Source: Psammoneis japonica (taxonomy: Eukaryota). From it: a stretch of DNA of 64,000 bases. The notes under the pieces are model-generated. The model saw nothing but the letters and a program-made list of their open reading frames with translations, had not been told where the DNA came from and did not search any database. Position numbers and translations under genes: made by a program. Within the stretch, counting starts at the first letter, position 1. Every line of letters begins with the position of its first letter. Below are positions 680 to 27,090 of this stretch, in pieces. The DNA lies in the NCBI GenBank assembly GCA_008632985.1, contig QPGO01000079.1:248001-312000 (forward strand). Reading direction: 5' to 3'.

Positions 680-1129
680 TGATGATTAACTATTGTTCGA
701 TCGTGTGCATATTTTTATGAGCAACTAGAGAGTCGTACGAATGAAAATGTTCGAAACGAGAAGCCAAGAAGCAATCGTGAGCGAGCGATGAATCCCCTCT
801 CTAGCGATTCCGTTTATTTCACATTTTGCGACTTGCTGCATGGCAGTTCCTTTGAAATCTCTAATACTATCAGATAGAAATAGACATATATCAGCCAGAA
901 TCAAGCAGAGCCAAGCAGCAAAGCAATACGATATCTTGGCTTTGTCTTTCTTGTCTCCTCAAGAGCTCAAGACTCAAGATTGACGGGCTGACGGGGGTGC
1001 GCGCGTCTCTCACAAAAAACATGATGGCAGCGGCGCGCCCTCCGCGCATGTCTCGGCTCCAGTTGACGCAGTTTTCTTTCTTTTCTCAACCGAGGCCATT
1101 TTTTTGTTTGACAAGGAACCCTTGTGAGG

Positions 1130-5109: not shown

Positions 5110-6560
5110 TGTCACAAAGCTGTCGCCATCCCAACTCTTGTCTATCACCTCTCTCACAAGATCCATAACATGTTGCACCAAACACGGCATTCATCCCGCT
5201 CACCGGCGGCAATGTCTTTCATCTCCCTTCGAGCCGCTCTGGTGCCGCTCTCGGCTCATGTGGTCCAACCCACGCTCCACCCTTTCCCTCTGTCGCATCT
5301 TCCACCAATGCGCTCCCATTCTCCTTCAGTTTGACTCTCCTTCCTTCACTTCATTAACACACGCTGTCAAACACCACAACCTGCATGGTCTTCCACAGAG
5401 CGCTTCACCCACACATCATCATCACAAGACGAACACTCTCCCTCAGATCCTCGCCGATCCCTCCATGCAAGCAACCAGCCCTTCCATCTCTGCTGTCTCC
5501 ACTGACAAGCTTGTGCCTTCACTCCCTTTCCAAGCTCATGCCTCCAGCTGGCTCCCATCGAACTCATTTGCACTTCTTCTCCTTCACAAGCTGTGCCTCC
5601 CAACGATTCCCTTTGATCGGCTCCAATGCGACTGCCCATGTGGCCACACCCGCCCAGACCCTTGCAGAGACCATGCCTTTGAATGCTCCAAAATGCGTTG
5701 AGGCCCGCTGTCAAATCACATTTGCAACACCATTTGCACCATCATCGAAACACTGGCCCCCCTTTGCGGTCTGCGCCTTTCCCGCTAACAAGTCCACCTC
5801 AACCCTGCCGGCCTCTTGGCTGACCACCCCCTCAAACACCCTGCCAATGTTGGCGTTCAACTCACCCCTGGCTCCACACCACCAGGTGCCCCATTCAATC
5901 ACTTCTTGGCCATTGATGTCACTGTGCCGCCAGCTCCCCAGCCTCCTGCACCTGGTTTGCCCATCCCCGAAAACCCCCATTGAACAAGGCTCACCTCAGC
6001 CGCACACAGGACAAGCTTCTCTCAGTTGTTCTGTGCCATCTGCTCACAGCTCCGACATCATCAATGCCATCAATCAAGCCAGACTTTTCCTCCTCCCTTT
6101 CACATTTGACCACCTTGGTGGAATCTGTCTTCTTCTTCGGCACCTCTGCCACAACATCCTCCTCCATCCCACCCCTTCCTCCCAAACCACCCTGGACAAG
6201 CCCATCCTCCCTTTCCAACTCTCAAGCATCCTTCTCCACTTTCACCAACTCACTGCTTGCACCTTTCAACCTCCTTGCCCACTCCAATGTGGCCTGGAAA
6301 CAACTTTCACCGGACTGCTTTGGCTCCTCTTGTCACACCGTGACACCTCAACTCTGGGCCTCTCAAATCCTCAGCCTCAACTTCAGCTTTGCTCTCTCCA
6401 ACCATCTCTCCACATGCCAAGCTCTTCTTCTTTGCCATCCCACTGTTGCCAACAACTCTCCTCTTGACCGTCTGTCCACACTTTGGGTTCACCTTTTTCT
6501 CTCCATCCCCCCAAGCGTGCTCCGCGCAACCCTCCCACCACATGTTTCTCCAGATCAACC
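5110..6560 (+). mobile_element. 3' remnant of a CRE-like non-LTR retrotransposon (zinc knuckle plus restriction-like endonuclease), degenerate
   Basis: Across frames: CDCPCGHTRPDPCRDHAFEC (CxCG..DxxGDHxxxC-type knuckle), HPANVGV (RPAD-like), FLAIDVTV and LLPFTFDHLGGI, in the usual RLE order. TpA-depleted. Confidence 0.65.
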
Positions 6561-8496
6561 CTTTCCAACACCACAAACTTTCCAATTGTCAAAAGAAAGA
6601 GACATTGAAGTGTCTCAAGCACACTCGAGGGAAGAAGGTTTGGGGGGTCGAATTCTGTCTCAAACCAACTTGTCCAAAGATGTCATCAGATTTCCTCTGT
6701 GTCACAAATTGGAAGAGGCGTTGGATTTTTTTAACTGTGATGTCCACTGTCCATGGACACACAAAGGTGTTTTGAGCAAGGAGAAGAATTGCAGTGGTGG
6801 TCTGTCTGTGTGACAGTTTCCACATGCATTTTGTGCTGTCATCCATCCCCACCACCTCCAGCCTGATCCCAGTCACGTGTGTGCACAACTCCTCAAAACA
6901 ACGCCCGCTCCTGTGAGAATCAGAGTGGCACTTTGGACTGTTTTCAATCCTTTCAACAATGCCAATGCCATCTGCCAGTCTTTGCTGTCATGCAGAAGCA
7001 AGTTGCTTGTGACCAGCTGCAAGACAAAAACCAGGGCGCCCTTGTGTTGGTGCCATGGACCAATGCTTGCTTTGCTCTCTGCCACAATCCAGTCATGCTG
7101 TGCTTTTGTTTCATTGTCTTGCTCTGTTTTTTGATGTGGTTGTTGTCATCATTCATGCAGAGAGGCATCAGGTTCTGGTGTCAGCCCTGAGGAGGAGGAG
7201 CATCTGACAGCTTCTCCTGCCCACATCTGGCCTGCTCTGGCACAACCGGGCTTCTTCACATCAGCACAGCGGTGCTGCAGCGTGCTTGACACTCCAGTTC
7301 AGACAAAAACAAGCACCCCAAAACTCATGCCACCAATGACATTGATGGTGGCATGCGCATCGTCTGCACTGTCTGTTGATGGCAAGTGACCAATGAGTTG
7401 AGTTGGTTGCAGGTGATCATCCAACGACCAATGATGCACTTTTGCCACAGATGTTTTCACTCATCACAGGATGCATGGTTCCACAACATCTTAAATTTTG
7501 TTTCTTTTTGCCTTCTGATCTCCAAAGGAGGTCTGAGATGACTTGACCTGATTGACAATTGGGTTGCTGTTGTCAGGCCCACACTTTGGGACCCAATCAG
7601 ATGACAACAGTCAAGTCCATTTTTTGCAATGATGGAACCTCCACTGCAGAAGATGGGCAAATGCTCCAAACACTTTTCTTCTCTGAGTTGGCCCACATGA
7701 TGGGTTTCTGTGAGGTCAAGACCAGCCAGCATGCAAAGACTGTTGTTGCTTGTGCAGGATTGGCAGCACTTCTGAAGTCCCATCAAAGCACTGCATCATG
7801 CCTTTTGGTCACTCCCACCATTTCCTGTTGCACAGTCTGCAAACAGAAACATGTCCTTTCTGGTTCGTTGGGTGGCACTGGGGACACACAGAGACAAGCC
7901 TCTTTGTGATGAGCAACATCCCTGTGTGCAGATTGTGGTTTGACCTGCACAGCAGTCATGCACAAATCTGTTGGTCTGTGCCACAGGTTGCCACAATGCC
8001 TCTCTGGGTGTTTGAAGCAAAAGGTCTTCTTTCTTCCACCGGGTGTTCCTGCCACCAAGCAACCATTTTGGTGGTGTGCCCCCAGCTGGGAACTTGCCTT
8101 TGAACAACTCCTGTGCTTTTGGCTTCATGCTCAAATAAAGAGTGTCAAGTGAGAACCTGATCAGTCTGTGTGGCATGATGAGCTTGACAAAAAGAGGCAG
8201 AAAAAATCCAAAAAGGGCAGCAAGAGAGCAAACCTTGAGCAAGCAACTGCCAGCAGGCTCAAAAGAGTTGGGAAGGGAGAGTTTTGAAATGAGCGGGAGA
8301 ATCTCTCAATCTGGGGCCCAAGTTTGGCAATCTTGCTCTGCACAGACCATGTGTGCTGCACAGCACTTGGGTGCCTTCAGTGGCTTGCAACCCATCTTCT
8401 CCAGACAAAAAAAAGCTTGCTTGGTCTGCTGTGACAATGATGAGGGGAGAAGAGGTCGCTGCAGCTCAGAGGATGATTGGCTCAAATCCAATGAAG

Positions 8497-8730
8497 GCAA
8501 GGTCAAAAACAGGCTTGACAATCTGTGCAACTGAGCTGGAAAGCCAGCAGCCAATTTTTGAGGCACAAGCAGCAATTTTTTTTATCTCCAAACACGCAGC
8601 ACTGCCAGCAACTGCTTCTTGCTTGGCAGCAACATGGCAGTTGTGGTGTGACAAGGTCAAAAACAGGTGCACAACAACCTGCACAACTGAGTTGGAAAGC
8701 CAACAAAATCCATTTGTGCACCAGCAGCGC
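8497..8730 (+). repeat. About 155-bp tandem unit, second array at about 14183-14470
   Basis: aaggtcaaaaacagg...caactgagYtggaaagcca recurs at 8499 and 8653. Related units start at about 14187 and 14344. Confidence 0.75.
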
Positions 8731-8749
8731 CAACAGAAAATGTTGAAAC

Positions 8750-10930
8750 AAACCATGACCAACAATGCAGGGAACACTGAGAGTGTGGACAAACCACAGA
8801 AACCAGCTCAATGTGATGCTGGCAAGGAAGGTCTTGAAAAGTTTCCTTTGAATTCTTGGGGTGGAGCAGCAGAGGTTCTTGAGACAGCACAAGAAATGTG
8901 TGCAGCTTTGCAGCAATTCTCAAACAAAAGGACAGCAGTGGCAAGACAATCCTTGGTTTTGACACAGAGACCTTCTGTCTCAACTTCAGAGAAGGAGGTT
9001 TGGATCTAACAGCATTGGCTCAAGTTGCTGCTCAAGATGCAGTGGGTTTGTTTTGTGTCTGCATGCTTTGGTGGCATGCTTTTGCCCAGTTGATCCCTCA
9101 CTGGAACATGGCAATTTTCTCAAGTGCAGTGCAGGAGGCATCAGCTGGGATGTCACAGAGCTGCAAAAAGCCAAAGCATTCACCACAGGGGTTCACAAAG
9201 ATCACTGGCATCATGAGGTGGTGGTGGCACCTCAATGTCAAGACAGGAGGTTTGTGTGGTCTTGTCAGTTTCTTGCTGCATGGCTGGAAGCAGAGAACAA
9301 CAGAAAAATGGCTTGCACAAATCCTCCCAGCAATGTCGCCACCAAGTGAAGCAGACCAGAAGACAAGCTCAACAAAACATTGTCAAGAAAGACGTTTGTT
9401 GTCTTCTCCTGCTGTTTTTTGGAATGGGTGTGTTGAGGTTCTTGAAATGGCAAGGGTGACAAAGAAGGCCATGGATGAAATCATGAACAAAAAAGTGCAA
9501 GATTGCTGGAAGAAGACAACCCTTGGATTTGACACAGAGGTGGTCATTGCAAAAGAGGGGTGGCATCCACTGAGACACTGGCTCAGATTGTGGCTGAAGA
9601 CAAAGTGTGCCTTTGTTCAGGCTGTGGTCTTTCCAAGAAGCCCACTTTGACCCCCTTTGATTCTCTTGCTGGAGCAGCACAGCAATTTTCTCAAGAGTGG
9701 TGCAAACACATGCACAACCATGGCAGAGCTGAAAAAGTTGAAGCATTTGCTCCAAGCAGATTTGTTGCGATTGTTGACATTGCAAGCTGCCAGGTCAACA
9801 CATCAAGCCTCACAGTTTGTGGGGACTTGTTGGCATGTTGTTGAACAGTCAAAAAAGCAAGCAGGACTGGGAGAAAGCACACAGCATGGAACAAAAGGAA
9901 ATTTGACATGCTGCAACCAGCACATGGGTTGGCTGAGACTTGTGCACAAATGCATTTCAAGACCAGAGACAGAGCTGGGCCTGCCACCCACCATTTCTGA
10001 GATCGACTTCAAAGAAGTTGCAAGGAAGAAGGCAGCACAAGGAGGGATGAACAGCACAGACAAAGCAAAGGAAGAGGAGAAGAACAGAAAATGTTCCTCC
10101 CAGAACATCAGCAGCTCTGATGCCAGCACCAGCAAGAGAGCAAGCCAGAAAGGCATGCTTGGTGATGTGATGCTGGCACAAGAAAGCTGTTTGTGGTCTT
10201 TCTTCCATCTGGAATGGAAGAATTGAGGTTCTCAAAGCCACAGAGGCAATGAAGGCAGCTTTGGGAGAAATGCTGAAACAATGAGATTGTCCTGGCAAGA
10301 CAACTGTTGGATTTGACGCTGAGGTGGCTCTTGTGAAAGATGGGCAGCATCCACTGGCACTGGCTCAGATTGCAACTGGAACATTTGTCTCACATCTGCA
10401 AGCTTCTCAAGTCTCCTTTGATGTGCCATTGATTCCCTTGCTGAAGGCACAGGCATGTGCCAGGATTTGGCAGAGCCACAAGAAGTCAAGGCATGTGCCC
10501 CTTGGGAGCACTTGTGGATGTCACCTCCTGACATCACAACCTTTCAACTCAATGTCAAGGCACAAAGTTCGTGGGGTCTTGTTGGTGCACATTGTCAAAC
10601 AGACAGCTGTCTGACAGCTTTCAAAGAAGCAAATGGGGCTGAGAGAGAAAACACAAAGCCTGGAACCAGGAGAAATTTGCTGCACCAGGGCAGCCAATGC
10701 CTGGTGGCATGGTGGGGCAGGAAGTGTGCACTTGAAGAAGGCAAGCAACAAACTTGTGGCACAGACTGATGTTGAAAGCTGCCTGCCAGAGAGGGAAAAA
10801 GCTGGAGAAAAGAACACAGAAAAACAAAGAGAACAGGGAGGCACATGCAAACAAGACCATCACAACATTGACAGCACCACCTGCCCAGGGCAAAGACCAG
10901 CCAAAGCCAGGGCACTGCACTGAGGCAAAA
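8750..10930 (+). pseudogene. Heavily mutated copy of the 3'-5' exonuclease gene with remnants of three tandem exonuclease domains
   Basis: KTILGFDTET, KTTLGFDTEV and a third GFDAE remnant, plus linker ELGLPPTISEIDFKEVARKK matching ELGLPPVPDIDFKEVARRK of 24367-25539. Confidence 0.88.
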
Positions 10931-11169
10931 TGGAATGAGGCAGAGAGTTGACATGAATGGTGCTTCAGGAGCCACTGTGTTGGGGCATCTGGTGTGAGCG
11001 GGAAATGCAAGAGACCCAGAAGTGGATCCATTGAAGAGAGGATGCTTCAGATCCTGATGTGGTGGATCAGACAACACTTTAGAAATGAGTGCACATTTGT
11101 CACCAATCTCACCAACCTTCTTTTTAACTCACTCTTTGGAGCGAATCATCTGGTTTGCATGAAATGCAC

Positions 11170-13600
11170 TGTGGTGTCAGCAGGTGCCCCCATCACATTG
11201 TAAGATCGAAGTTTTTTGAGAGCTTCCAGGCAAACTGCAGCCACCACAGAGACCAGGACAGGTGTGATTAGCAGCACAGGAAGCCTTGGAGGACTCTCTT
11301 TTGGCACCATTGACCTGTCGGTTCAACGTTCACTCCAAAGAGTTGCAGGTGCTGCACTGGCGCACATGTGGCGCCAACCTCCTTTTTTGTCATCTGAGTC
11401 AGGAAACCTGCCCTTGGGAGCAGCAGAGGAGGAGGAGGAAGAATGAGTGCCAAAGGCCAAGGATGTGACCAAGGCAGGGGCAGCAGAGGACAGAAGTCTT
11501 GCTGTGACAAGAACAAGAAGACTGACCCCAAAAAAAGCTTTGAGCCAGAAATGAAGAATTTTCATCCGTCATCAATGAACAGCAACTCATGCAATGCAAT
11601 GTTTGAAGAAGTCAAGGAAAAGATTGTCAGCCAAGCACAGAAGGAGCATGATCAAGGCATGCATCTGGCAAGGTCCCCAGAAGACATGAAATGCATCATG
11701 TTCACCAGTGAGAAACCAGCACGAGCAATGGCATTGACGGCAGTGCCAGAAAGCTCAAAGGACAACCACAAGACCAAGAAAGATGAGAGGGCCAGAGAAG
11801 AAAGGCAACTGGAACATGAGCACAAGATCAAGTTGCATGACTGCAATGAGAAAGTCAAGAAGAAGCTCTTGAAGAAAACAAAAACACTGCCTTTGCAGCA
11901 ATCCCAGATGACTGCTGTGCCAAGATGATGAAGCAAAGAGTGCCGGCTGATTCCAGTTGTGCAGAGGGGCTCAGAGATGACCAGATCAACCTGCTGAGGC
12001 TGATCCAGCCACTCTTGTGTTTGACTCCATGAGGGGTTGACACCCGTTCCACATTCTCACCAAAAGTCCCTGAAGCACATTGTGGAAGTGAAGCAGTCAG
12101 AGGACAAGTTGCTGAATGACTGCCCGTTTGGATGCAAGAATCAATGGGATGCTGCAAGCAAAGGTCTCAGCAGTGAGATGTCAGATGGGCTCATCAAGAA
12201 TTCCAAGGAGTGCAAGGACTGCACTGAACCAGCAGATCAGAAAGTGCTGAAGGGCACTGCATTCAAGACATGGACAACACACCTGTCCATGGAAAACAAC
12301 AAGGACTGCTGCCACAAGAGTCTCAAGAAAAGCCTTGTGAGAGACTGCAGCCTGGGGAGGGATTTGCATCCAAAGACCCTCAAGAAGGCAATGAGTGTGT
12401 TGCTGAACCATCCAACAAGAGATGATTTTTCATGCAAGAGGCAGAGCAAGAAGAGTTGCAAGCATCAGAATGACAAGAAAGAGGACAAGGGTGATGACAA
12501 GCCCAAGAGCCCACAAGACCAGAGTCATGCACAGAGTGGCAAAGTGACGTGCCACTGTTGTCACAGAGCAAACCACAAGTCCCCAGATTGCAGATGCGAG
12601 GATGAGATCCCACAGAAGGACTGGCTCAAGAGCACCAGCAGGAAACTGGACACCAGGGGACAGAGTCATGCACAGAAAAACAAAGACACTTCATCAGCAA
12701 GCAGCAACAATGCCGGCGTTGGCACCTGCAGGTCAAGTTGATCTGTGAGCTCCACCAGCAGAAGAAATGTCACATGACATGGGTGTTCCAGTTAGATTGG
12801 CAAGCCAAACAAGGGCTGGAGATGAGTTTGAGCCAAGCTGATGCCAGCATTGAGTCAGATGAGATCATCCTTGACAATGATCTACCCCAGCAAGGCAGCA
12901 AGCCAGAGATTGGTGCACAATGTGTGACCAGCAAGGACCAAGATTGATCTTTCCACCAATGCAGGAGTGCACACTTCAGATGAAGACTGCAATGTGCCAG
13001 GATGGGGTGATGTGAAGCTTGGGCACAGAACATGACAACCAATGTCCTGAGCATCAAGGATGTGAAGAGCAAGTGCTGTGTCATGTGCAACAACCAAGTG
13101 GCGGATGAGTTCTGTCTGCTGGATGAGAAGACAGGCAAGCAGGTTGTGGTGTTCAAAGTTGACAACATCAGACTGTGTGCATTTTCACCAAGCCAGTGGT
13201 TCTTTGACCACTTGAAAGAACTCCAAGAAGATGAGTCACATGTGAGCATGCCATTGAAGGACAAGAAGGTTTTGAAGAAGACCAACATGTGAAGCACAAG
13301 AGTGCATCGGGGGAATTGTTGTTCCAACAGTGAAACAGAACATGAAAGGTCACACCAAACAAGAAGTGGCAAATGCTGAGGAAGCACTGAGACTGTGCTG
13401 CAAGGCTGAAATGCCAGTGTCAGGGATTTCAAGCCGTTCCTGCAATCCAATCAGGTGAAGAACCTGTCCATCCCACCTGAGGATGTGGACAGAATGGCGG
13501 CCATGTGGGGTCCACCAACGGATGTGCTCAAAGGCAAGACCAAGCATGCACACCATTTCCGTCCATGAGAGGAGCCATGTTGCCGATCAAGGCTAAAGTC
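11170..13600 (+). mobile_element. Truncated, degenerate Ty1/Copia (diatom CoDi-like) retrotransposon: gag, protease and start of the integrase region
   Basis: CHCCHRANHKSPDC knuckle (Cx2Cx4Hx4C), LGRDLHPKT, IILDN protease motif, NVLSIKDV, TVKQNMKGHTKQEVANA and WGPPTDVLKGKT. TGGTGTCAG at 11172 could be a mutated TGGTATCAG tRNA-Met primer site. Confidence 0.8.
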
Positions 13601-14182
13601 CAAGAAACATGACCATGTTTACAAAGCCTTGGACATGATTCTCCAACAGCACAACATGGCCCCATTTGAGATTCAAGGACATGCTGGCAGAAGTTGCAAA
13701 TGGCATGAACATCTGGAGCTTGTCTCTGCAAATGCCAAGGACCATGTTCCCAAAGTTGAGCAAAGCATTCAGACCACAAAGCAGTGAACCCATGCCACTG
13801 CACTCACTCTTGCACAAGTGTCGCACCCCCTCTGCCCCACTGTTGAAAATGTTGAGTCCAAGACTTGATGTGCTTGACATTGTGGAGGTGGGCAAAGATG
13901 AAAATGACTCCTGGGGCTCTCATCTAGAGCTCGTGTTCAGCCCTGAGTTTGGCAGCTGATTGTGTGTTGCCTCAACAAAGGTGTTGGATGCCTTCAATCC
14001 AGTCACTCCAAAAAAAGCAGTGCTCTTCTTGGCAGAGAAAAAATCAGCTGTGTCGGCATCCAGAAAATTTCTTCAGAGCAGTTGTCCCTGCCTGCCATCA
14101 GCGACATTGAAGTGCAGACACCAATGGAGCAAAGCCACAAGTTCCAGATGAAGCCACCACCACTGGCTTGAACCCAACCAAG

Positions 14183-14470
14183 AAAAGTCAAAGACAGGCT
14201 CAACAACTGGCACAGCTGAGTTGGAAAGTGATGACAGCAATCCATTTGTGGCAAATGGTGATTTTTTCTCTCCAGACACATGGCACTGTGCCAGCAAGTG
14301 CTTCTTGCTTGGCAGCGATGCAACAAACATGGTGCAACAAGAGGTCAAAGACAGGCTCAACAACCTGTGCAACTGAGCTGGAAAGCCAACATTCCATTTG
14401 TGGCAAGCATCAATTTTTCTCTGCCAGCATGCTGCGGTGCACCAGCAAGTGCTCCTTGCTTGGCGCCACC
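14183..14470 (+). repeat. Second array of the about 155-bp unit
   Basis: gtcaaagacaggctcaacaac at about 14187 and 14344; cttcttgcttggcagc shared with the 8.5-kb array. Confidence 0.75.
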
Positions 14471-15793
14471 AGCGGCGCAACAAATGTGGTGTGCACACTG
14501 TCAAATCCCTGTGTGCAGTCCCGCTCACATCCAATTGACCACCCATGTTTTCAAACTCATTCTTGCAAAAGATGCCTTCCTTCACAAGGGTGCACAATGA
14601 GTTCTTTGTCACAGGTCTGCAACCAAGTGAACATTTTCCAACACAGGACAGGTGTGTGTTGCTCTGTGCAATGTGCCACAATGCATGAATGATGCTCTGC
14701 TTGTGGTGCGCATTGCATCTGAGTGTCCATGCCAATTCACACATGCAGCATGTGCCACACACACTGCACCACCCCTGTGCAAGGGCTGCTGTGGGATGCA
14801 GGTGGGTGTGGTGTGTGATGACATCATCACATGCATTGAGTTGCAAATGTTCACATTTGCACTGACAATTGCATGTTGTCAAGCAACAGCTCCCATCCCA
14901 CAGCACCCCTGAATCTCTGACCACCAAACACTGACCCCAGCACTTGACCATTTTTCAGCCATTCTCACACCACCCAAACAACACATGTCACATCAACTCC
15001 ACCATGATGACATCTCCTTCTTTGTCACCAACAACTTGCCAGGACTCCATTCCTGCTGATGTTGTTGACATTGACACTGCTGCAAGAGGCAAGGATGTCG
15101 CTCCGGTTGTTGCACACCTTGTGCACCCCAAACAAGAATGTGCAAACCCGCCCACGCTGTCACTGCACCCATTGTGGAGGATGATGCCATTGCTCCGGTT
15201 GTCGTAACCCAGCCACAGACGCATTGCAATCCAGAAGATGTCAACATTTTTCTCCTGATGCAACACCTGGCACACAGTCTCAAGGCTGCAATTGGTCCAC
15301 CCTGGTCACAGCGTTGCCTGAACAACTTTCTTCTGAGCGTGTGCATCTGTTGTTGTGGCACTGCATTGGCTTGCCCTGTTTTCTGAGATGTTGCACACTG
15401 TGGCACAATGACGCAGTTTGCGGTGATCCAGTGTGGGGCAATGCCAACCACTGGAGCCACTTGGAGTGCTGGCAAAACAACAACTGCTTTCTCATTGTGC
15501 TCACTTTCTACAGTCGTCAAAAGCATTTCTGACAATTTCCCAAAACAAGGTGACCATCTTGCTTTTGTTCCCCTTGCGTTCACAGAGGCCCAAGCACTTG
15601 GTGCTTGCTGCCCAACCATCCTGTTCTGCTGGATCTTCAAAGCAGTGGGGAAACCCAGGACATGCTTGCAGAACTGTCTTGACAGGTGACTGGAAATTGT
15701 TTGTTGATCAAAAAGTGCTCGGCCCTTTCTCATCCGAGGAAGTAAACTGGGTGGTTGTCAGGCAGAAAATGTCTGGCGACAAGGCATGTCAGC

Positions 15794-16524
15794 TGACAGG
15801 ATTTGAACAGGATTTGGGTGCGTGCGAAATGTCGCGTGCTGTTTAGTTCACCGCGCACAGTTTTGTGCGCTCTTTAGTTCCGCGCGCACGCGTGCGATGC
15901 AGTTTGCTTTCAAGCCACACGGCTCACAAGAATGACAACAGCAGCCCGATCACACTGACTTGCACGTCTTTTGGCTCCTGTGACGGTCTCTGAGCGGAGA
16001 CTCATCTGCCATTTAGACAGCAGTGAGGAGTTGTTGTTTGAATTCTTGCCATTTGCCTTCAATTTCTGTCAGACATTGCGTGCGTGAGGCGATTGCCTCT
16101 GGTTGCCTTGAGTTCCACTTCATCAAAGGCTCCCGCAACCCTGCTGACATCCTCAGCAAGCATTGGGGTTGCTCCCAAATCTGGGACCTTCTCCGTCCCC
16201 TCATGTTTTGGAACTTCGTTCCATCCGAAGTCGAACCTGTTTCTGTGACTCCTCAAGCAAACTGGGGAGTGACAGGATTTGAACAGGATTTGGGTGCGCG
16301 CAAAAATGCACAGTTTTGTGTGCTCTTTAGTTCCGCGCACACGCGCGCGATGCAGTTTGCTTTTGAGCCACACGGCTCACAAGAATGACAACAGCAGCCC
16401 GATTGTGCCGACTTGCATGTCTTTCGGCTCCTGTGACGGTCTCTGAGTGGAGACTCATCTGCTGTTTAGACAGCAGCAAGGAGTTGTTGTTTGAATTCTT
16501 GCCGTTTGCCTTCAATTTCTGTCA
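15794..16524 (+). mobile_element. Miniature, internally deleted Copia element: two LTRs around an RNase H tail
   Basis: LTR1 15794-16071 and LTR2 16270-16524, both TGACAG...CTGTCA. 5-bp target-site duplication TCAGC (15789-15793, 16525-16529). Purine tract GGGGAG before LTR2. Internal part encodes HCVREAIASG...NPADILSKHWGCSQIWDLLRPLMFW. Confidence 0.93.
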
Positions 16525-17853
16525 TCAGCAAGAGAGATGTGGGCGGCAGTGAGGAGCAAGCTCAAGAGAGTGCACAACACATCAAATGCACCCATGCCAC
16601 TTGCTTCTCACTGGATTGACCATCATGCACAGTTGGTTTTGAGTTGATGAGAGCCAAAGCCCCTTGTCAGGATCAAAGATTTGTTTGCTTGCAAGTTGGA
16701 GCAATTCCCTGGTTGCACTGCTGGCATCAATGACAGGCTTGCCCAAGAGCTCAATCCGCCACAGCCACAGAAACATCCCCACCTGTCAAAACAGGTGCAG
16801 CAGTGTCAGCATTGGGTGCACCAATCCTGTGAAAGGCTGGCAATGTGCCAGCATTCATGACAGCATCTGTGGCAGGCTCTGCCACATCAGAAAAACAGCG
16901 TCAGTTTGCAGCACATCATTTTGGCTGTTTTTGGCATGAGAGAGGCAAAGCAACAACATTGTTGCCTCTTGCATCAGGTGCACTGGGAACAGCATCAGGT
17001 GTGGTGCTTGCGGGACATGGAGCCATGGCATTGTCATTCACAACAGAAGCTGTGGCAGGCACTGGAGTGTGAGAAACAGAGTGTCCGTGAATGAGCTCTA
17101 ATTTTGGAAGCAGCACCAGGTGCACGATGGCCACAGAAATGACATCACCTGATGCGCCAGTGTCATCATTGTCAGCATCAATGGGTGCCGCATTGTGGTG
17201 AGGTGTTGATGATGAATCACTTGACATCATCATGGTGGACTTCTGTTGGCGCCTTTTTTTGTGTGTTGCACGAGGAGAGAGGGAAAAATGGTCAAGTGCT
17301 GGCTGTCAGTGTTTGGTGGCCAGAGAATTGGGGGAGAGTGTGGATCAGGATTTTCCCTGATGCTCATGAGCATTTGTGTGCAAACAATGCAAAATTTCGT
17401 GAAATGACAGCATGCCACTCTTCCCTTGCACGCACATGTTTGACGGGTGGACAGACAAATTGCTGTGGCCGCCTTCAGAATCCGTTTTTCTTTGTCACGG
17501 CACAACCATGGGCCGCTCCGACAACACTGTCTTGTGAACGCCGCTGTTGAACAATTGCTCGAATCTACCCGACACTACTCACGCTCGTGACAACAAACAA
17601 GGGGAGCGTTTGTTGCATCAAGCAACATCCGGTTTTGGCCGCTTGCAATGGGCTCAGACTCCTCTTGCATTGACTGCGGTTTTTCTGTCTCGTGCCGCTC
17701 GCTCGCGGTCCAACCCATCACCTTCACTGGACGACTCATGTCTCCCTTTCCAATGCAAGCAGCTTGTCACCACTGGCGCTTGTGTTTGGCCTCTCCATCC
17801 TCTGCCTGCTGCAGTGGCATGCTTCCTGACACCTCGTGCTGCTGACAGCAACT

Positions 17854-20814
17854 GTGACAATCGAGAACGTGTGTGTTGATGTTCTGCACCGGCCAGAGTT
17901 TGACCTTGTTGATGACAAGCCGATGAACAATCAAGCAGAGCTGAGAGGAGAAAGTGTTGCAGTTGACATGTCCACACCACCGTGCAAGATTCTCATTGAT
18001 CCCACAGCTGCCAGGCAAGTCCATTCATCGCCCAAGATGCCTGTTGCCCAAGCTGCTAAACTGTTGGTGCGGCGACATGAGAGACTCTACAAAGCCAATG
18101 GTGTTGAAGCTGTGTGCACATTTGATGGCATGCACAATCCACTCAAATGGCAAACGGATGCCAAGCGCAAGGCCAGGAAAAAGCCAATTGAGGACAGAAT
18201 GTCATTTCTTCTTAAACAGAACAAACCTGAACAAGACCGCCTCGAGGTGCTGAACAAAAGGAAGAGTGTCGTTTGTCCTCAAGGAGACATCATGCTTCTG
18301 ATCAAGAAGGTGTTTGACCAAGAAGGAATGCCTCATGTTCAAGCTGCAGTTGAAGCTGAAGCACAGTGTGTGGAGATGCAAAATTCTGGGATCGTTGGAT
18401 GCATGGAATCCAAGGATGGTGACGTGCATGGGTGCAATTGCAAGAAATGGATCACAAACTTGAACCCCTTCAATGGCGACTGCTGCATCTTGGCAGCTTC
18501 TCAAATTGATGCTCGTGAGTGTGCGGGTGGTGGGCGCTGGAAGGATCACAAGCATGCTGCTCCTGCTTTTCAGAGCTGCGACTGCAATGTGAAGCCACAC
18601 AGTTTGCCGTTTGCCAAAACGATGGATGGATGCATCGCTGCCACAGATGAGAAAAAGCACCTCGAGGACATTGAGACCAATTTTAAGTGGCCGCCAAAAG
18701 CTCATGGTGCTGATGACAGAGGGCAGCCTGCAAAAGGATTCGCGTTGGAAGCCGGGCACACCATGAACATGTTCCTTGGTCACCCAGTCTTTTGGCTGTT
18801 GCCAAAGGAAGGTTTGGATAAAATTGATTTGTCAAAACTGCCAAGCAAGGATGCGCATGGCAGCATTGAGCTTGTGCCATCATGTGATTGCCCCCAATTT
18901 TCTGAGGATGGTGGCGAGGGATGGGGAAGATGCCTGGGATGCGACAAGTCACCGGCGGCTGTGCTCGGAGACATTCTACACAGCAATGGCATGGACAATT
19001 CTGACTGCTGTCCCTTGCTCTCAATGGAAATGTGGGCAAGGGGAGGAAAGCCACTTGAGCGAGAGGCAATTCCATGTCCTCAACACGACAACCGACACAT
19101 GATCAGCCACCTGGCAGAGCTCAACGTTGATCCAGACAAAGGCGGTGTTCCTCTCGGATTCCTTGATGTTGACCACATGAGAGCTTTTTTGCAGGAGCGG
19201 CGAAGCCTGCCACCATCTCATGCCGGGACCATCCCAAGTGCTCATCTTGAGGAAGCAGCGCGGGCCACTCCAGACAAAATGAAATGACCAAACGGTTTGC
19301 AGCTGGTGCCACGATCCTTGTCAGAGTCATGAAAAGATTCGGGAACTTTTTCTGTTGAGCAGGTGATGCTGCCTCCAGCAGGGCAACAGCGGCAGTGGGA
19401 TCATGAAAATGTCATGCAAAGAGTGCGAGGAGCAATGAAAATTGATGACAAATCCATCAACAACATGACACATCGGAAGAAGTGAGGTGGCGCAAGGTGC
19501 TGTGCTTGCCGACGCATTGATGGTGGCAACTGCAATGTCAACACATTCTCTGTGACAGAGGGAAGGCACAGGGAGACAAGACGCAGCGTTGTTCTCTTTC
19601 GCATGCTTGTGACCCCATCCCAGAAGTCGGACCCATGTTGGGCACATGTCGCATTTGACAAGGAGACAGGAGACTGTGTTCCATGTCCTGGATCGAGGTG
19701 TGAGTGCCCCGTGGTGGATGGGTGTTCCCACACCCTTGCTTTTCTTGGAGGTCCGATTTGCTTGGCGCAAACGAATGTCGAATGGACCGTGGACACTCTT
19801 GCTGAAGCAATGCTGGAGTCCATCAAGCCACACCAGTCATGTCCCATCCCTTTTGAGGCTGGAGCTTTTGAGTCTAGCAAAGTAGAGAAGGAGGTAAAAG
19901 CTGAGGGAAGAGCCACTCTGGCATTCCATGAGACCCATGGTTCCAGAGAAAGGGACAACGAAGACGAAAATGTTGAGACGGCGGCACAAAATGAAGAAGA
20001 TGATGATGGAACTCCCACAACACAAATGTGCGCCAACACAGAGGTCATGGTTGCAAAGGCTAAAAAGAGGGCCGAACTGACAGAGACTGAGCGAGATTTT
20101 GCTCATTGGGTTGCATTGGACAAGATGCGAGCCATGAACAAGGAAAAGCTTGAAGGCAAGGGCGGGCCAAATGAGTCTCTCGACTCAAAGCATGAACAAT
20201 TAGAGATGCTTGAGTGCCTGCATCAAGAAGTGAAGGTGGGAAACCTGCCACGGATGCTCCTCTCTCACTGCGCAGAAATTTCAAAGCCTTGCCATGATTG
20301 TTTGTTGAAGCAGCTGCCGCACGTGAAGGACCCATCCACAGTCCGCCAAAAACACCGTCTGCCAAAAATTGAAGAAGACGATCAAGCATGCGGCGACAAG
20401 AATTTCAACAATGCATCTTGCTTGCATCCCAATGGCAATGAGATGATCTGCCCAAAACACCTTGTTGGGAAGCACTGTGACATTGCTGAGGTGCGTGAGG
20501 ATGAAGGAATCAAATCGCTTCGATGGTCAAGTGAAGGTGTCTTCACGTGAGCAATTGATGATGCCCATGTTCAAGATGTCACAACCAGCGGTCATTTCCC
20601 TTGTCTGCATCATGCTGTCAACTGCTCTCAAGGGCGCACCAATCTCTGTGCCCCATGCCACGCCCCTGATCCAAACCTGCATCCAGCTGACAAATCTCAC
20701 TTTGTCGACTTTGAAGAAAAGAAATTGGCAGCTCGAAAGAGGAAAGAAAAAGCTCGGGATAACAGAGCAAAGAAGAAGGAGGCAGATTTACAAAATGTCA
20801 CAAAGGAAAATTAG
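17854..20814 (+). pseudogene. Transposon ORF: XPG/EXO1-family nuclease + SWIM finger + putative C-terminal half of a DDE transposase
   Basis: One reading frame broken only by a few TGA codons. Motifs: LRGESVAVDMS, TFDGMHNPLK, AAVEAEAQC, SKDGD, SCDC (GCDY-like), RCECPVVDGCSH, then RLPKI..GDKNF..PNGN..P..L.G..EV..D..I..LRWSSEGVF. Ends in TAG. Probable start ATG now reads GTG (ctATG->ctGTG). Confidence 0.78.
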
Positions 20815-20884
20815 TCCAGCTGACTGCCTCTCGTGTTTTGTGTTGCATGTGTGTTTGCTTCTTCTATTGTCAACACTGACATGG

Positions 20885-22560
20885 TTAGTGTGGCTCGTTG
20901 GCAAACAAAATTTGGTTTGCATCAACTGTTCCCCACAATTCTGTCAATCTGTTCTCAGGGCATCGTCCAAAGCAGAGCCCTGTGTGCTCAAACACTGAAC
21001 CAGTGGGAGCCAACCATGTCATTGTAAGCCCGTCACTCGAATCCGTCTTCTCATTGTACAGCAACCGATCAAGAGCAGCACAGACTCGAACTGTGTCTGT
21101 CACAAACATTTTGCCATCCACGACCGCCGCGATTTTTTCATGGCCTTTCTCCCCAAATGTTTTTGGCACCGCAGTTGTGATGTAAGAGGTGCATTGAGGT
21201 GGATTGCTTGTGGTTGAGTGTGGAACGTTGTCACTTGATGCAACGTCTTCTGGCAGGCAATCGTCCATGAAGTCCAAATCGAGCATGGACATGTAAAGCC
21301 CTGCTTTTCCAAGGCAAGGCATCCACATCTGTGCTGTCCGTGGAAACCAGCTGTTGCCTTCACGATGCCATGTCGACCCCAAAGTTGCCACCCGACAATC
21401 CCGGTGCACCGTCATTGTGCATGTCAGCACCTCTTTGACCGCCGTGAATTGCTCCTTTCCCTTGCCGTGTCTTTCCTCTACATCAGGAAACCAAACCTTT
21501 GTGATGCAGCAGATGGCTTCCTCAAATGTCCCCAATCCCCAAAGATGCTTTGCCATTTTGTCATGATCCTCGTGCCACTTGCCGCTCATCAGATTCTCCC
21601 TGCTAAGTCCACCCATCGCTTCAATCTCATCCTCCCGCTCCAAGCACACTTTCAACTTTTGAGCCTTGTCTGCTGGCTCTGATGACAGTTTGTCAGCTTT
21701 TTTCAATGCAATTTGAAGCAACTCATTCACATGCTCAAGCTCTGCTCGCAAGCTGACATTCTCCTTTCCTGCTCTATCTGGATCAAATGCGGGGCGTGCC
21801 TCTGTGCTGCTGCAACTTTTCGGACCATTGGCGGTGGACGAGGCAAGTCTCTTGCATTGTCATCCTCATCAAGACATGCTCCAATGGGGTCCAATGATGT
21901 GCGGGCTGACTTTGCATCTCGTGGATAATCTTTCTTGGTGCAGTTCAGTGCCGGGCAGCATGACATTTTTCCATTGCTCCGATCTCTTGCGTCACTTTTG
22001 TGAAAGCACAACAATTCTCCCGTCTCACAGTCCACATTTTCCAAGGGGCCTTTGTTGTCCTCTTTTAAAATGGCAGGATGGAAATGATTGAATCCAATGC
22101 ATTCACAATTGCCAGTGGGTTCCGGTGGCACACAAGAGTTCCCAACAAGATGCCGACACGCCACGACTCTCATGTCATTGTCACTGACACTGCCACCTCC
22201 ACATGGCCTTCTTTTGCTGGCACATGGAAGGTGGCAGCAACCACACCTTTTTTGTCACCAGCATCAATGAAGTCCTTTGTGCTTTGCTTGCACTCTTCCT
22301 TGTCACGGCAGATGCATGGGCAGAGCCGCACACCTTTGCAATGGTTTCTCTGGGGATCTCGCTTGCGTTTGGGAGGCGACGTCGCGCGGACGATTCTTCC
22401 GTCATTGCTGCAGCAGGCAGAGGAATGCCAAAGCTTGTAGATGTGCCAGTGGTGACGGGCTCCTGTCGACGGCAACGGAGACACACGTCTTCGAGTGGGT
22501 GTGATGGGCCGAGCTGTGACGGGAGCTGAAGAGAAGAAAAATGGGTTGATGCCGGTGCTG
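20885..22560 (-). pseudogene. Transposon ORF: THAP-like finger + coiled coil/HTH + N-terminal half of a DDE_Tnp_4-type transposase (frameshifted)
   Basis: CPCICRDKEEC..FHVP..HFHP, then AVVDGKMFVTDTVR..LYNEKT..LTMTWLAPTGSVFEHTGLCFGRCPENRLTELWG. Ends in TAA soon after, before the second catalytic Asp. Start position uncertain. Confidence 0.72.
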
Positions 22561-23058: not shown

Positions 23059-24366
23059 GATTCGACATCAACAAGACTTCGCGCAACACTCGCAACAACC
23101 AAGACAACAGAAAACCGCTCGCAAAATCTCGCTCCCACTTTACACGTTGCAGCTGATGTGGTGTTGTTCATTCGTCTCACTCGTTTTCATCGTGGAACCT
23201 CCTGATGACACAGGGTGTCTTTCAGGTGTGTGCATCGGTCTGATTGCCCCCCCCTCTTTGGGCAAGAATGGGGTGTGTGGTTTGCTTCTTGAAGACACCA
23301 GACCAGAGCCACAAGGAGCTTGCAGTGGAGAGCTGGCAAGCAAAGCACTGGGCTGCGCCACAAGGCACTGGCTGATGGGACAGCATTGGGCAAGCACAAC
23401 TGCAAGCATTTTCCTGAGGGCACTTTGCACCACATGTGACAAAGCCAGAAACATGGACTGAGAAACACAGACAGAGCCAGGTTTTGCTCAGCTGGCCACC
23501 CAGAATTCAAGCAGGGGTGCAGCCGGAATGAAGAAGGCTGCAGGTCAATTTGAGGTCCCAGTGGGAACTTGCTTTGCATGTTTGTTAATAGCCTGCTGCA
23601 GAAGCTGTGGCTGCACTGGAAACCCAAAGGTGGCGGTGCGTGATGGGGTGGATCTTGCAAATTCTCTCAAGATTTTGTGATGCATGGGGCCAAAATTTGG
23701 GTGCAGCATCCACAGATGCTTTGGGAGAGATGCTGTGAATTCGTCAAGGCAGGCACTTCTGACAGCATGGGTGGGGAAGGCCAGTGCTTGTTGCCAGGGA
23801 TCTTTGTGAAGATCTTTTAAAGAGGATGACACTGCGTTCTCTCACTTGGAAACTTCAGAGAATTGTTTGGACACAGCGTGGGGCCAAACCCGCCAAAGTG
23901 TGCACTGAATTTTGGAGAACAAAGAAGACACAGATCAGCGGCAGTGGCCACCAAGCTGGCAGGGCAAGGCTTGGAAAACAAGCTGCCCAAAAAGCCATGA
24001 TGGGCTGGCAGCAAAGCACTCCTCACAAAAGATGCCGCTGTCAAGCTGTGCCACAGACTGCACAACTCCACAGTTCTCCAGCACGCTGTGGGAGCTTTGC
24101 TGCCAAGCATGTAAAACCGCAGCACCTCAAGTCACAGACAAGCTGCTTTGCAGGCAGAAGCCCAGCCAAGGGCCGCAAGTTGACAGCCCCACAGCGTCTT
24201 CTCTTTTTCTCCTTTTTCCTTCTTTTCCTCTCTCTCTTCTCCTTTTCTCCTTTTCAGTTTATTCTTCTGGGCCGCCTCCGGCGGCCACCTCTTTCATTCT
24301 TCCCACATGCCGAAATCTCGTTGAAGGTCGACAGAAGAATTAGAAGACAGAAAATCGGAACAAACC

Positions 24367-25539
24367 ATGGCAGACAACACAGGGGATGAGCCGCAGAAAC
24401 CAGCGCAACGTGACATTAGCAAGGAAGATCTTGCAAAGCTCCCTTTGATTTCTTGGAATGGAGCGGTGGAGGTTCTCGAGACGGCGCAAGAAATGCATGC
24501 AGCTGTGCGGAGAATTCTCAAACAAAAAGACAGCAACAGCAAGACAATCCTCGGCTTTGACACAGAGACCCGCCCAAACTTTAGAAAAGGAGGTTGGAAT
24601 CCGACGGCGTTGGTTCAGGTTGCTACTCATGACACGGTGTACTTGTTCCGTATTTGTAAGCTTTGGCGGCATACTTTCACGCCGTTGATCCCTCTGCTAG
24701 AGCACAGTGATTTTCTCAAGTGCGGTGTGGGCATCAGCCAGGACGTCACGGAGCTACAAAAAGTCGAATCATTCACGCCACGGGGATTCATGGAGATTGT
24801 TGATTTTACGAGGTGGCAGCTCAACATCAAGCCGGGAGGTTTACGTAGTCTCGTCGGTTTCTTGCTGCATGGCCGGCTCTCCAAAGCGGCTCAAATGAGC
24901 AATTGGGCCAAGGACAAGCTCGAACCAAAAGAGATTCAGTATGCAGCAACTGATGCGTGGGTTGGACGAGAATTGTACGTAAAAGCAACTCAAGAGCAGG
25001 CGGAACTTGGTTTGCCGCCCGTTCCTGATATTGATTTCAAAGAAGTTGCACGGAGAAAAGCAGAGAGAGCGAAGAAGAAAGCAGAGGAGGCAAAGGAAGC
25101 GGAGAAAAACAGAAATATTGCTTCCATGAAAGTTGCCAACAAGAATGTCACTACAGTAGGTACCGAGAATAGGCCAGAAAGACCGGCTCAACGAGACCTA
25201 AGCAATATTCATGGTCTTCCATCCATTTCAAGGGCGAAGAGGAAAGCAGAGGATGCAAACGAAGCGAAGAACAATAGAAGAATTGCTTCTCCGAACATTG
25301 CCAGCAAGAATGCCACTACCAAGAGCGGGACAGAAAGACCGTCTCAACGAAATGTCAGCAAGAAAGCTATTCGTCATCTTCCATCCATTCCAAGGGAGAA
25401 CTTTGCCAGCAAGGATGCCACTGCCATGAGCGGGCCAGAAAGACCTTCTCAACGAAACGTTAGCAAGAAAGATATTCGTGGTGTTCGATCCATTTCAAGG
25501 TATAAGAACAAAGCAGAGAATGCAAAGGATGCGAAATAA
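24367..25539 (+). CDS. DEDDy 3'-5' exonuclease (WRN-exo/RNase D-like) with a repetitive basic tail
   Basis: ILGFDTETRP (Exo I), KCGVGISQD (Exo II), QMSNW...QYAATDAW (Exo III); 390-aa uninterrupted ORF. Confidence 0.9.
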   Translation: MADNTGDEPQKPAQRDISKEDLAKLPLISWNGAVEVLETAQEMHAAVRRILKQKDSNSKTILGFDTETRPNFRKGGWNPTALVQVATHDTVYLFRICKLWRHTFTPLIPLLEHSDFLKCGVGISQDVTELQKVESFTPRGFMEIVDFTRWQLNIKPGGLRSLVGFLLHGRLSKAAQMSNWAKDKLEPKEIQYAATDAWVGRELYVKATQEQAELGLPPVPDIDFKEVARRKAERAKKKAEEAKEAEKNRNIASMKVANKNVTTVGTENRPERPAQRDLSNIHGLPSISRAKRKAEDANEAKNNRRIASPNIASKNATTKSGTERPSQRNVSKKAIRHLPSIPRENFASKDATAMSGPERPSQRNVSKKDIRGVRSISRYKNKAENAKDAK

Positions 25540-25559
25540 ACAACAGAGAAATTGCTTCC

Positions 25560-26237
25560 ACAAACGTTGCCAGCAATGTCACTACCAAGAGCAGACCAGA
25601 AAGACCGGCTTCGACGAGTCATTGGCAAGAAAGGTATTAGCGATCTTCCTTCGATTTCTTGGAATGGACGTGTATAGTTCTTGAAACCGCAAGGCCAATG
25701 AAGGAGGCTGTGGATAAAATCCTGAAAGACAAAGACAACCGGAACAAGACAATCGTTGGATTTGTCACTGAGACGGCTATCGTGAAAGAGGGGCGGCATC
25801 CACCGGCGCTAGTTCAGATTGCATCTGAAGATACAGTGTACCTATTTCGCATCTGCAAGCTTCCCAAGTCTACTTTGACGCCATTGATCCCCTTGCTAGA
25901 GAACAGCGATATTCTCAAATGAGGTATACGCCAGAACGTGGCGGAGCTACAAAAAATCGAAGCCTATACACCTCGGGAATTCGTGCATATTACGGACATT
26001 ACCTCCTGTCAACTCAACATCAAGCCACAAAGCTTGCGGGGTCTTGTTGGCGTGTTGTTGAACAGACAGCTGTCTGATGGGTTTCAACGGAACAAATGGG
26101 ATTGGGAGAAAACACAAAGCCTGGAACCAGGGGAAGTTCGCCACACGGCAACAAAGGCCTGGGCAGGGCTGGAAGTGCACATCAAGGCAAGCGACGAATT
26201 GTCGCACAGGTTGATGTCGAGGAGGACTCACCAGTGA
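25560..26237 (+). pseudogene. Second, disrupted exonuclease domain downstream of the intact ORF
   Basis: KTIVGFVTET (catalytic D->V), PALVQIA, LIPLLENSDILK*, SLRGLVG, RHTATKAW; stops and frameshifts. Confidence 0.85.
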
Positions 26238-27090
26238 GTGAAAAGCCGGCGGAGAATCGCGGATGAAAGAACACGGAAAACAAAGAGAACAGGGGAGACA
26301 CAAACAAGACTGTCACAAAATCGACAGTGCTGCTTGCCCAGGGCAAGGATCAAAGTCAGAATGCTATGTGGAGGAAAAATGAAAAGGGGCGGAGAGGTGA
26401 CAAGAATGATGCCACAGGATCCAACGGGTCGCCAGCAAGAAAGGCGGCCAAGGTTGCTGACGCACACCTGCAAAGCGTGTGCTGATTTACTGCATTGTGC
26501 AAAAACGACGAGGTGCGACTTGGAGGGTTGCATGTTGGCACATTGCACTACATAATGGCCGACAGGCGTCTCTCTATTGCCATGGATCGAAAGCCTGTTG
26601 AGAAGACTCCGCCAGCTGTGTCACATTGGATTGCTGCGTCGTGAGACAGTGTAGATTGCACAGACAATTTCATAGTTCGACATGATGCATGCTAAGCATT
26701 TCATGTTCCACTCGATACAGTATGGTGCCCTTCTTGAAATGAAAGCGTGTTCCATTCTTGTCTTTACCAGGCCCCTTGCAGCGATGCCGCTTCATGGTGC
26801 TTCTCCTTAGCAGGCAAAGTTGAAGTACATAGAGAGGTTTGGTTTGTGGGAGCTCGAGCCGATGAAGTAGATGTGGTATAGATTCTACTTACGATCATTT
26901 GCGTAGCATCGTACTGATGACCGCCATGGCGAAGCACAAAAAAACCCCGCGAAAGCTGGAACGAACGCAGGCGCAGCCGTGCGACCCAAGAGCAAAGCAG
27001 CGGTGTGCGGAACGATATTCTAAAACATTTCTGTTGCTGCAGAGTGGAGATATACCTTTGCAACTCTCGTTTCATAAGTTGTTTTTGTCA

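Follow-up and report, generated by a model that had tools for sequence, protein, structure and literature searches.

Transposon DNA in the genome of the diatom Psammoneis japonica loses its TpA steps after insertion, by transitions on either strand that turn them into TpG or CpA, and CpG steps of the same DNA are lost alongside. The pattern is observed directly in its direction, its TpA specificity, its action on both strands, the independence of paired LTRs, its chromosomal location, a lag in 5' LTRs, a correlation with CpG loss and an inflated LTR divergence, and we regard it as practically certain. To explain it, we propose that two processes with the same products act on silenced transposon DNA within the chromosome. 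One would be the usual decay of CpG into TpG/CpA. The other, much faster, would convert TpA to TpG on either strand (seen as TG or CA) by a single hit per site, favoured when C or T lies 3' of the A. Its lesion would be deamination of A to inosine by a host TadA/ADAT-type enzyme recruited to methylated or heterochromatic domains, where it would leave scattered single hits. Missense changes, for instance of the tyrosine in the YVDD motif of reverse transcriptase (RT), could disable the elements and serve genome defence, or else be a by-product. We lean towards this account as a whole, the two processes and the TadA/ADAT-type enzyme class included.

The starting point was one element in a window of 64,000 nucleotides, the whole stretch that was analysed (contig QPGO01000079.1, positions 248,001 to 312,000). 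Positions 15789-16529 hold, on the forward strand, an internally deleted copia-type LTR element of 731 bp with the 5-bp target duplication TCAGC on each side, the left one at 15789-15793 and an identical right one at 16525-16529. Both LTRs are bounded by TG...CA. The left (5') LTR, 15794-16071, has 278 bp, and 15 of its 18 TA-class steps are changed; the right (3') LTR, 16270-16524, has 255 bp after loss of 23 nt, and 12 of its 14 aligned TA-class steps are changed. Between them, the 198-bp internal remnant (16072-16269) retains no TA and consists of the C-terminal stretch of RNase H and a purine tract ending GGGGAG, lacking gag, the primer site and the bulk of pol. It matches, at 92-95%, sequence directly upstream of the 3' LTR in other copies. 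Its deletion junction was found at 0 of 136 other loci, and the remnant alone gave no Pfam match over the cut-off. As long copies of the family, only elements with an inner length of 6.4-6.6 kb were used (27 or 26 depending on the analysis); all 26 examined for it have RT upstream of RNase H in their 3' part, an RVT_2 match (copia-type RT, E 8.6e-25) was obtained for one of five ORF pieces from one long copy, and no integrase match was found in the long copies searched. The TG...CA LTRs, the 5-bp target duplication and the order RVT_2 then RNase H in long copies are traits of Ty1/copia elements, unlike which, in their full form, the window copy has only 198 bp between its LTRs. Diatom elements of this kind go by the label 'CoDi'.

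The element sits in a TA-stripped, CpG-poor repeat domain of about 17 kb (5200-22500, approximate limits from TA counts and profiles). TpA loss is concentrated in these repeats, the observed/expected ratio (o/e) of TpA being 0.03 upstream of the element (19 TA in 10,489 bp) and 0.08 downstream (27 in 5,471 bp), compared with 0.56 where the window is rich in genes. Read evidence was taken from run X1, runs X2-X4, which contain small shares only, being left out; among the runs listed, none of RNA contains the locus. An X1 contig at single-copy-like depth (38.5) connects 15793 to 16549 with the element absent and the target site present once; the element is therefore probably on one homologue only, the alternative being a near-identical paralogue, of which none was found in the assembly. 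An allelic haplotig was rejected, since queries with element and flank (40 candidates scored each) returned no second copy of the locus in the own genome and the best flank match was 84%. The host genome also gave 24 silicon-transporter matches, on which its assignment to the diatoms rests; a kinase homologue search added no more than a Bacillariaceae hit at 75%.

A sequencing or assembly artefact is a barely conceivable source of the pattern. X1 is the only run with the locus and may be the assembly's own sample, which limits the agreement of its short-read contigs with the flanks (seven of eight listed pieces without any differing letter), and none of the listed pieces spans the element, although a joint at depth 35 is consistent with the right-LTR deletion. 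Against an artefact, the read contigs match the TA-free flanks, the pattern varies with position, context and copy, and an unrelated metagenome contig agrees with it.

Beside the 23-nt deletion, alignment of the two LTRs over 255 positions shows 22 substitutions, all of them transitions. Twenty-one of these fall in pyrimidine-purine (YR) steps, which cover 132 of the 255 positions (P = 1.1e-5 for at least 21 of 22 there by chance), and the remaining one lies at the deletion edge. An earlier note, based on inspection of this DNA, had described an intact target duplication and LTR pair whose differences were, one indel aside, essentially all transitions in YR steps, and both descriptions hold. 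The differences comprise eight of TA class, 11 of CG class (at 10 steps), two where CA or TG reads CG, and the one at the deletion edge. The four double differences quoted in that note are all present and correspond to five steps resolved as CA in one LTR and TG in the other (15911, 15951, 15953, 16010 and 16024). Its suggestion that such sites descend from TA or CG proved right on both counts, four being of TA class and one of CG class, so that alignment with other genomic copies gives CG at only one of the five.

Among 29 copies, the four TA-class steps read TA in 5, 5, 1 and 4, and never CG. Two of them adjoin (15951-15954; TA in 5 of 29 copies and CG in 0 of 29 at each). The third, at 16010-16011, reads CA in 23, TG in 5 and TA in 1 copy, and keeps its TA class in the larger set of 102 copies; the fourth, at 16024-16025, reads TG in 12, CA in 13 and TA in 4. 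The CG-class step at 15911-15912 reads CG in 25 of the 29 copies and TA in none, corresponding to CpG decay on opposite strands. The visible differences understate TA loss: 14 TA-class steps can be compared between the two LTRs, and 12 of them were lost in both, eight of the 12 by the identical change. Every TA left in the window LTRs is in the slow T-TA-G context, as at 15875-15876, where it is present in both, and likewise at 16014-16015.

Ancestral states were read from 102 other LTR copies, which are the top-ranked matches of two own-genome queries (about 950 candidates) together with partner LTRs and do not form a random sample; alignment columns with more than 10% gaps (39 of 315) were dropped. 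Over 18 TA-class steps the cells read TA 766, CA 459, TG 600 and CG 1 times. A step that shows TA, CA and TG with no CG must have TA as the hub state. At 22 CG-class steps the counts are CG 1942, CA 133, TG 146 and TA 0, and at 32 steps fixed as CA or TG fewer than 1% of cells are changed. Two processes therefore act on the LTRs, CpG decay and TpA loss, and yield identical products. The RT motif of 26 long copies, YVDD in 19, CVDD in four and HVDD in three, points to TA as starting state in the same manner.

These counts bear on methyl-CpG decay alone, which is refuted as sole cause, and highly improbable in that role, while it stays as the second process. It is half of the pair's differences (11 of 22), one CA/TG double included, and fits the CG-class changes. 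It cannot act on TA: the four CA/TG steps above derive from TA and never from CG, and CG occurs in one cell over the 18 TA-class steps. CG-class changes are also about eightfold fewer (78 changed cells per 1000 versus 627 for TA class, in 27 long copies), and metagenome relatives poor in CpG (CpG o/e 0.04-0.25) still have TpA o/e of at least 0.46.

Away from TA and CG steps the same 27 copies show 2.8 private A>G changes per 1000 cells versus 1.9 G>A. By context, private A>G amounts to 3.9 at AAY, 3.0 at CAY and 2.8 at GAY, and transversions to 0.3-0.4 per 1000 cells. Errors of polymerase eta-like enzymes turn WA to WG, with TA as the best context, and such an error-prone polymerase copying or repairing heterochromatin would predict scattered A>G on either strand, in keeping with the slight excess of private A>G. 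Yet the rate at AA is not raised over those at CA and GA and lies more than 100-fold below TA, and transversions are at the low rate just given. The flat rate at AA excludes a WA-type signature and largely refutes this explanation, which we consider quite improbable.

Loss of TA depends on its neighbours. Over 187 sites, per-site retention is 0.56 for Y-TA-R and 0.15 for R-TA-Y (P 5e-6), with the fastest loss where a pyrimidine follows the A (TAY); A-TA-R is an exception, fast despite the purine 3' of the A (0.77-0.78). Context also bears on which strand is hit, the TG share being 0.76 at Y-TA-Y and 0.35 at R-TA-R (P 5e-7). Overall there is an excess of about 57:43 towards TG on the sense strand (600 TG versus 459 CA at TA-class steps), which context explains partly, not wholly; at R-TA-Y sites, good context on both strands, TG exceeds CA at 33 of 52. 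Strand symmetry, which the earlier note had made a point to check, is thus imperfect, although both strands are indeed mutated. CA and TG are both present in 86 of the 102 copies with no strand overdispersion (P 0.16), and the strand correlation between hits is 0.07 within 20 bp and about zero farther away, with no runs.

The timing of the changes was assessed on LTR pairs, 40 of 48 candidate pairings being kept (target duplications exact in 38 and differing at a YR step only in two). The eight dropped were extra pairings in three-LTR loci or had target duplications that did not match or were missing; in one of these the only difference is CA/TG. Two elements have identical target duplications, but their flanks do not match, and they are separate insertions. 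Among steps lost in both LTRs of the 40 pairs, 102 of 271 are discordant, against 100.7 +/- 7.7 expected if the two LTRs mutated independently; the window pair has 4 of 12 discordant versus 4.8 expected. Had the changes come from an already mutated parent element or from RNA editing, the two LTRs would agree more often than by chance, where independence is observed. Three target duplications differ at a YR step only (TACGA/TGCGA, CTCAT/CTTGT and CAAGA/TGAGA); being host DNA, they cannot owe their alteration to a retroelement intermediate. Independence of paired LTRs and alteration of target duplications together support mutation in the chromosome after insertion, by independent hits and not in the RNA or cDNA, as the earlier note had deduced from the double differences. 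Loss of TA extends to three paralogous blocks of the window that are not LTRs and that retain no TA of their partner copies (12, 18 and 19 steps, with CA/TG at 11, 10 and 16).

ADAR- or APOBEC-like editing of RNA or cDNA before integration is refuted for the bulk of the changes and is very improbable as their origin. It resembles what we see in being context-specific hypermutation of retroelements, and it draws some support from A>G after T, akin to the 5' preference of ADAR, from the 57:43 sense excess and from resolved body states common to some long copies (one pair is discordant at 4 of 35 steps; over 351 pairs the median share is 0.36). The sense excess and these common states speak against a purely post-insertion and symmetric process, and part of the body TA loss may come from partly mutated source copies, or from misclassed sites. 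Such editing acts on intermediates, and it is hard to reconcile with hits on both strands and without runs, with independent paired LTRs, and with altered target duplications and non-LTR repeats. The strand bias of 57:43 also compares with a more than tenfold, clustered bias reported for APOBEC editing of LTR retroelements in the accessible part of PMC4866542.

Post-insertion mutation does not reach both LTRs equally. In 33 of 40 pairs, TA losses are fewer in the 5' LTR than in the 3' LTR (three reverse, four ties), a count inflated by the selection of copies; among the 20 pairs anchored by the TA-poor query, 14 show this lag (two reverse, four ties; P 0.005). LTRs most similar to a TA-rich 3' LTR were themselves 5' LTRs in 25 of 29 cases. 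The window element departs from this lag, its own 5' LTR being unprotected, with three TA left versus two in the 3' LTR. CpG loss lags in 5' LTRs too, and TA loss correlates with CG loss across the 27 long copies (rho 0.67). The common lag and the correlation suggest targeting via silent chromatin shared by both processes.

Several observations bear on the nature of the lesion. ADAR prefers a G 3' of the edited A. A change of A to G at TA that favours a 3' pyrimidine is a better match for TadA-derived editors, which prefer TAC according to the portion of PMC8065034 at hand. Genes for C5 methyltransferases are present in the genome, as are two ADAT1/ADAR-family domains that stand alone. It also has genes that we label TadA-, ADAT2- and ADAT3-like, partly on the basis of motifs. 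ADAT2-like and TadA-like genes are expected in any alga, and the deaminase set looks like an ordinary housekeeping one in which no member stands out. No fusion of a chromatin reader to a deaminase was present among the 28 ORF pieces scanned. One fusion of a deaminase with a 2OG-Fe(II) oxygenase was set aside as candidate enzyme on its motif, which we take to resemble that of a free base or nucleoside deaminase.

The same targeting and spectrum could instead follow from a modified base at TpA, either an A that is methylated and subsequently deaminated or a T altered so as to pair with G, made by an enzyme of methyltransferase fold in a kind of 'reverse RID'. TpA is palindromic as CpG is, so a symmetric mark is possible, and the 5' LTR lag common to TA and CG loss fits one. 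No chemistry known to us would let a C5 methyltransferase convert T to C, which counts against this alternative, and none of four candidates matched the N6/N4 methyltransferase family PF01555, a result that does not imply its absence. The change of TpA to CpA is the exact inverse of CpA to TpA in RIP, and diatoms possess a RID-related DNMT4, of unknown function in the consulted part of PMC9998398. In motif VI, one methyltransferase of this genome has EMV where ENV is usual, and its four closest relatives among 120 listed share the change; it recalls RID/Masc1, whose motif VI is also deviant but with other residues (EQT/EET in the accessible text of PMC6709928). In the survey of PMC9998398, as far as its available text goes, DNMT4 is found only in diatoms, yet the signature occurs also in Bigelowiella. 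We judge a modified base unlikely, if clearly less remote than the polymerase.

The deaminase reading that we favour has a close counterpart. In Bigelowiella natans, according to a preprint, NCLDV and virophage DNA integrated in the genome undergoes TpA-only A:T to G:C hypermutation, measured de novo, with a rate raised about 1000-fold and active in some lines only (bioRxiv 10.64898/2026.01.13.699255). In the sections available to us, its TpA-poor clusters are enriched for transposon domains, transposons are suspected targets, and an ADAT2-type deaminase is proposed, unproven. Both cases share TpA to TpG/CpA change on either strand, nearly exclusive and confined to foreign or mobile DNA. They differ in that Bigelowiella is a rhizarian with integrated viruses, while the present case concerns a stramenopile, with multi-copy LTR elements and other repeats, and is read through LTR pairs. 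Loss is near saturation here (o/e 0.03), against 0.45 in the Bigelowiella NCLDV region given in the preprint's accessible part. The 3' pyrimidine preference, the 5' LTR lag and the coupling to CpG loss are found here; the portion of the preprint text available contains 'diatom', 'LTR' and 'CpG' zero times.

The likeness extends to RIP of ascomycetes, which depends on RID/DNMT4 and is set off before meiosis by sequence duplication. There, too, inserted repeats undergo dinucleotide-specific transitions on either strand, the changes extend into neighbouring DNA, and LTR divergence is inflated. Unlike the diatom process, which removes TpA, RIP creates it from CpA/TpG; here only 3 cells read TA at the 32 fixed CA/TG steps of the 102 copies. 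CG methylation of silenced transposons, DNMT5-dependent, is described for Phaeodactylum in the part of PMC9998398 consulted. GC-gaining mutation in Purpureocillium was dropped as precedent, as the accessible text of PMC4949223 did not bear it out. Our search for TpA hypermutation in diatoms, from which subscription journals were mostly outside, retrieved no report. The window element is good evidence of TpA hypermutation aimed at repeats and superimposed on CpG decay. We found such a process reported once before, in the Bigelowiella preprint on an unrelated alga, and diatom transposons extend it.

What the diatom elements add is direct evidence for action on the chromosome after insertion, together with handles on the enzyme: the TAY preference, the scattered single hits, the 5' LTR lag and the covariation with CpG loss. 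A broader proposal, possible in our view but falling short of probable, is that a host enzyme of TadA/ADAT line would be a natural DNA adenine base editor, steered to silenced chromatin and acting at TAY on both strands to defend the genome by mutation of transposons and viruses. Such an enzyme would be common to or convergent in stramenopiles and rhizarians, patchy in diatoms, and the mirror image of fungal RIP. If true, a natural DNA adenine deaminase working on chromatin would be relevant both to genome defence and to base editing.

A practical consequence concerns LTR dating, which the earlier note had expected to be inflated. This is so: the 40 pairs diverge at 632 of 11,007 cells (5.7%) overall and at 35 of 5,267 (0.66%) outside YR steps, the naive divergence being about ninefold above that at other positions. 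The window pair diverges by 8.6% overall and at 0-1 of about 124 positions outside YR steps (upper bound 2.4-3.8%); the element is old-looking and probably young. LTR divergence also saturates, since parallel hits such as those at eight of the 12 doubly lost TA steps of the window pair are invisible. LTR dating, codon analyses and repeat annotation are biased in such genomes.

All targets examined here were repeats or DNA adjacent to repeats. The spread of the process was followed in metagenome loci with related RNase H, the best 80 of 359 being retained. TpA o/e lies between 0.33 and 0.99 in 79 of them, and the median of all 80 is 0.66. The one TA-erased locus has 3 TA in 2,766 nt, carries a CVDD motif and is 67% identical to the closest of 40 scored copies from the present genome. 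On the basis of this one contig, the process is rare among relatives and probably not unique to P. japonica.

The window, in whose TA-stripped part repeats have lost TpA to TpG or CpA, holds a family of paralogous blocks in three copies (1266-2219, 8794-10974 and 24325-26609), one of which carries a 3'-5' exonuclease domain. TA is absent and CpG scarce in two of the copies, and the third retains both dinucleotides. The LTR element at 15789-16529 inserted into an older repeat that has degenerate inverted repeats (14906-15098 and 16956-17334), whose paralogue on contig C56 is about 75-80% alike and likewise TA-poor. A long open frame of the TA-stripped block (17830-19287, forward strand) matches the XPG I-region. 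Long frames in such DNA call for caution because TA loss also erases TAA and TAG stops. Coding tandem repeats with units of 12, 129 and 63 nt (33500-35100 and 39009-39701) lie in the gene-rich part of the window, where CpG is kept. Elsewhere in the genome, locus L021 (G000:C82:46015-48297) has three LTRs in tandem spaced by about 1,003 bp, each preceded by an RNase H tail.

Among enzyme candidates for TA loss, the C5 methyltransferase gene L116 (G000:C59:372250-376194, ORF 211-2469, forward strand) has EMV in motif VI where ENV is usual, as do its four closest relatives among 120 listed. Motif VI is also non-standard in the fungal RID/Masc1 enzymes (PMC6709928). Several related C5 methyltransferase copies (L119-L121, on G000:C301 and C297), some with stops, sit within TA-stripped DNA with a TpA observed/expected ratio of 0.07-0.10. 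They are possibly cargo of mobile elements or duplicates that subsequently came under mutational attack. At L122 (G000:C34:42155-45664) a C5 methyltransferase domain follows a chromodomain-like exon scoring slightly below the Pfam cut-off, an order that PMC9998398 reports for some diatom DNMT4 proteins.

Two ADAT1/ADAR-family deaminase domains are found at L226 (G000:C40) and L227 (G000:C79), with no RNA-binding domain evident by eye in their listed ORFs. At L128:313-1785 (G000:C79, reverse strand) a single reading frame joins a zinc deaminase to a DIOX_N/2OG-Fe(II) oxygenase, and this fusion protein probably has a role in base or nucleoside catabolism.

The metagenome contig L139 (2,766 nt), a distant copia relative, has a total of three TA and a CVDD motif, the altered form of the reverse transcriptase YVDD. 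It bears the same signature as the Psammoneis japonica repeats, probably in another host organism.
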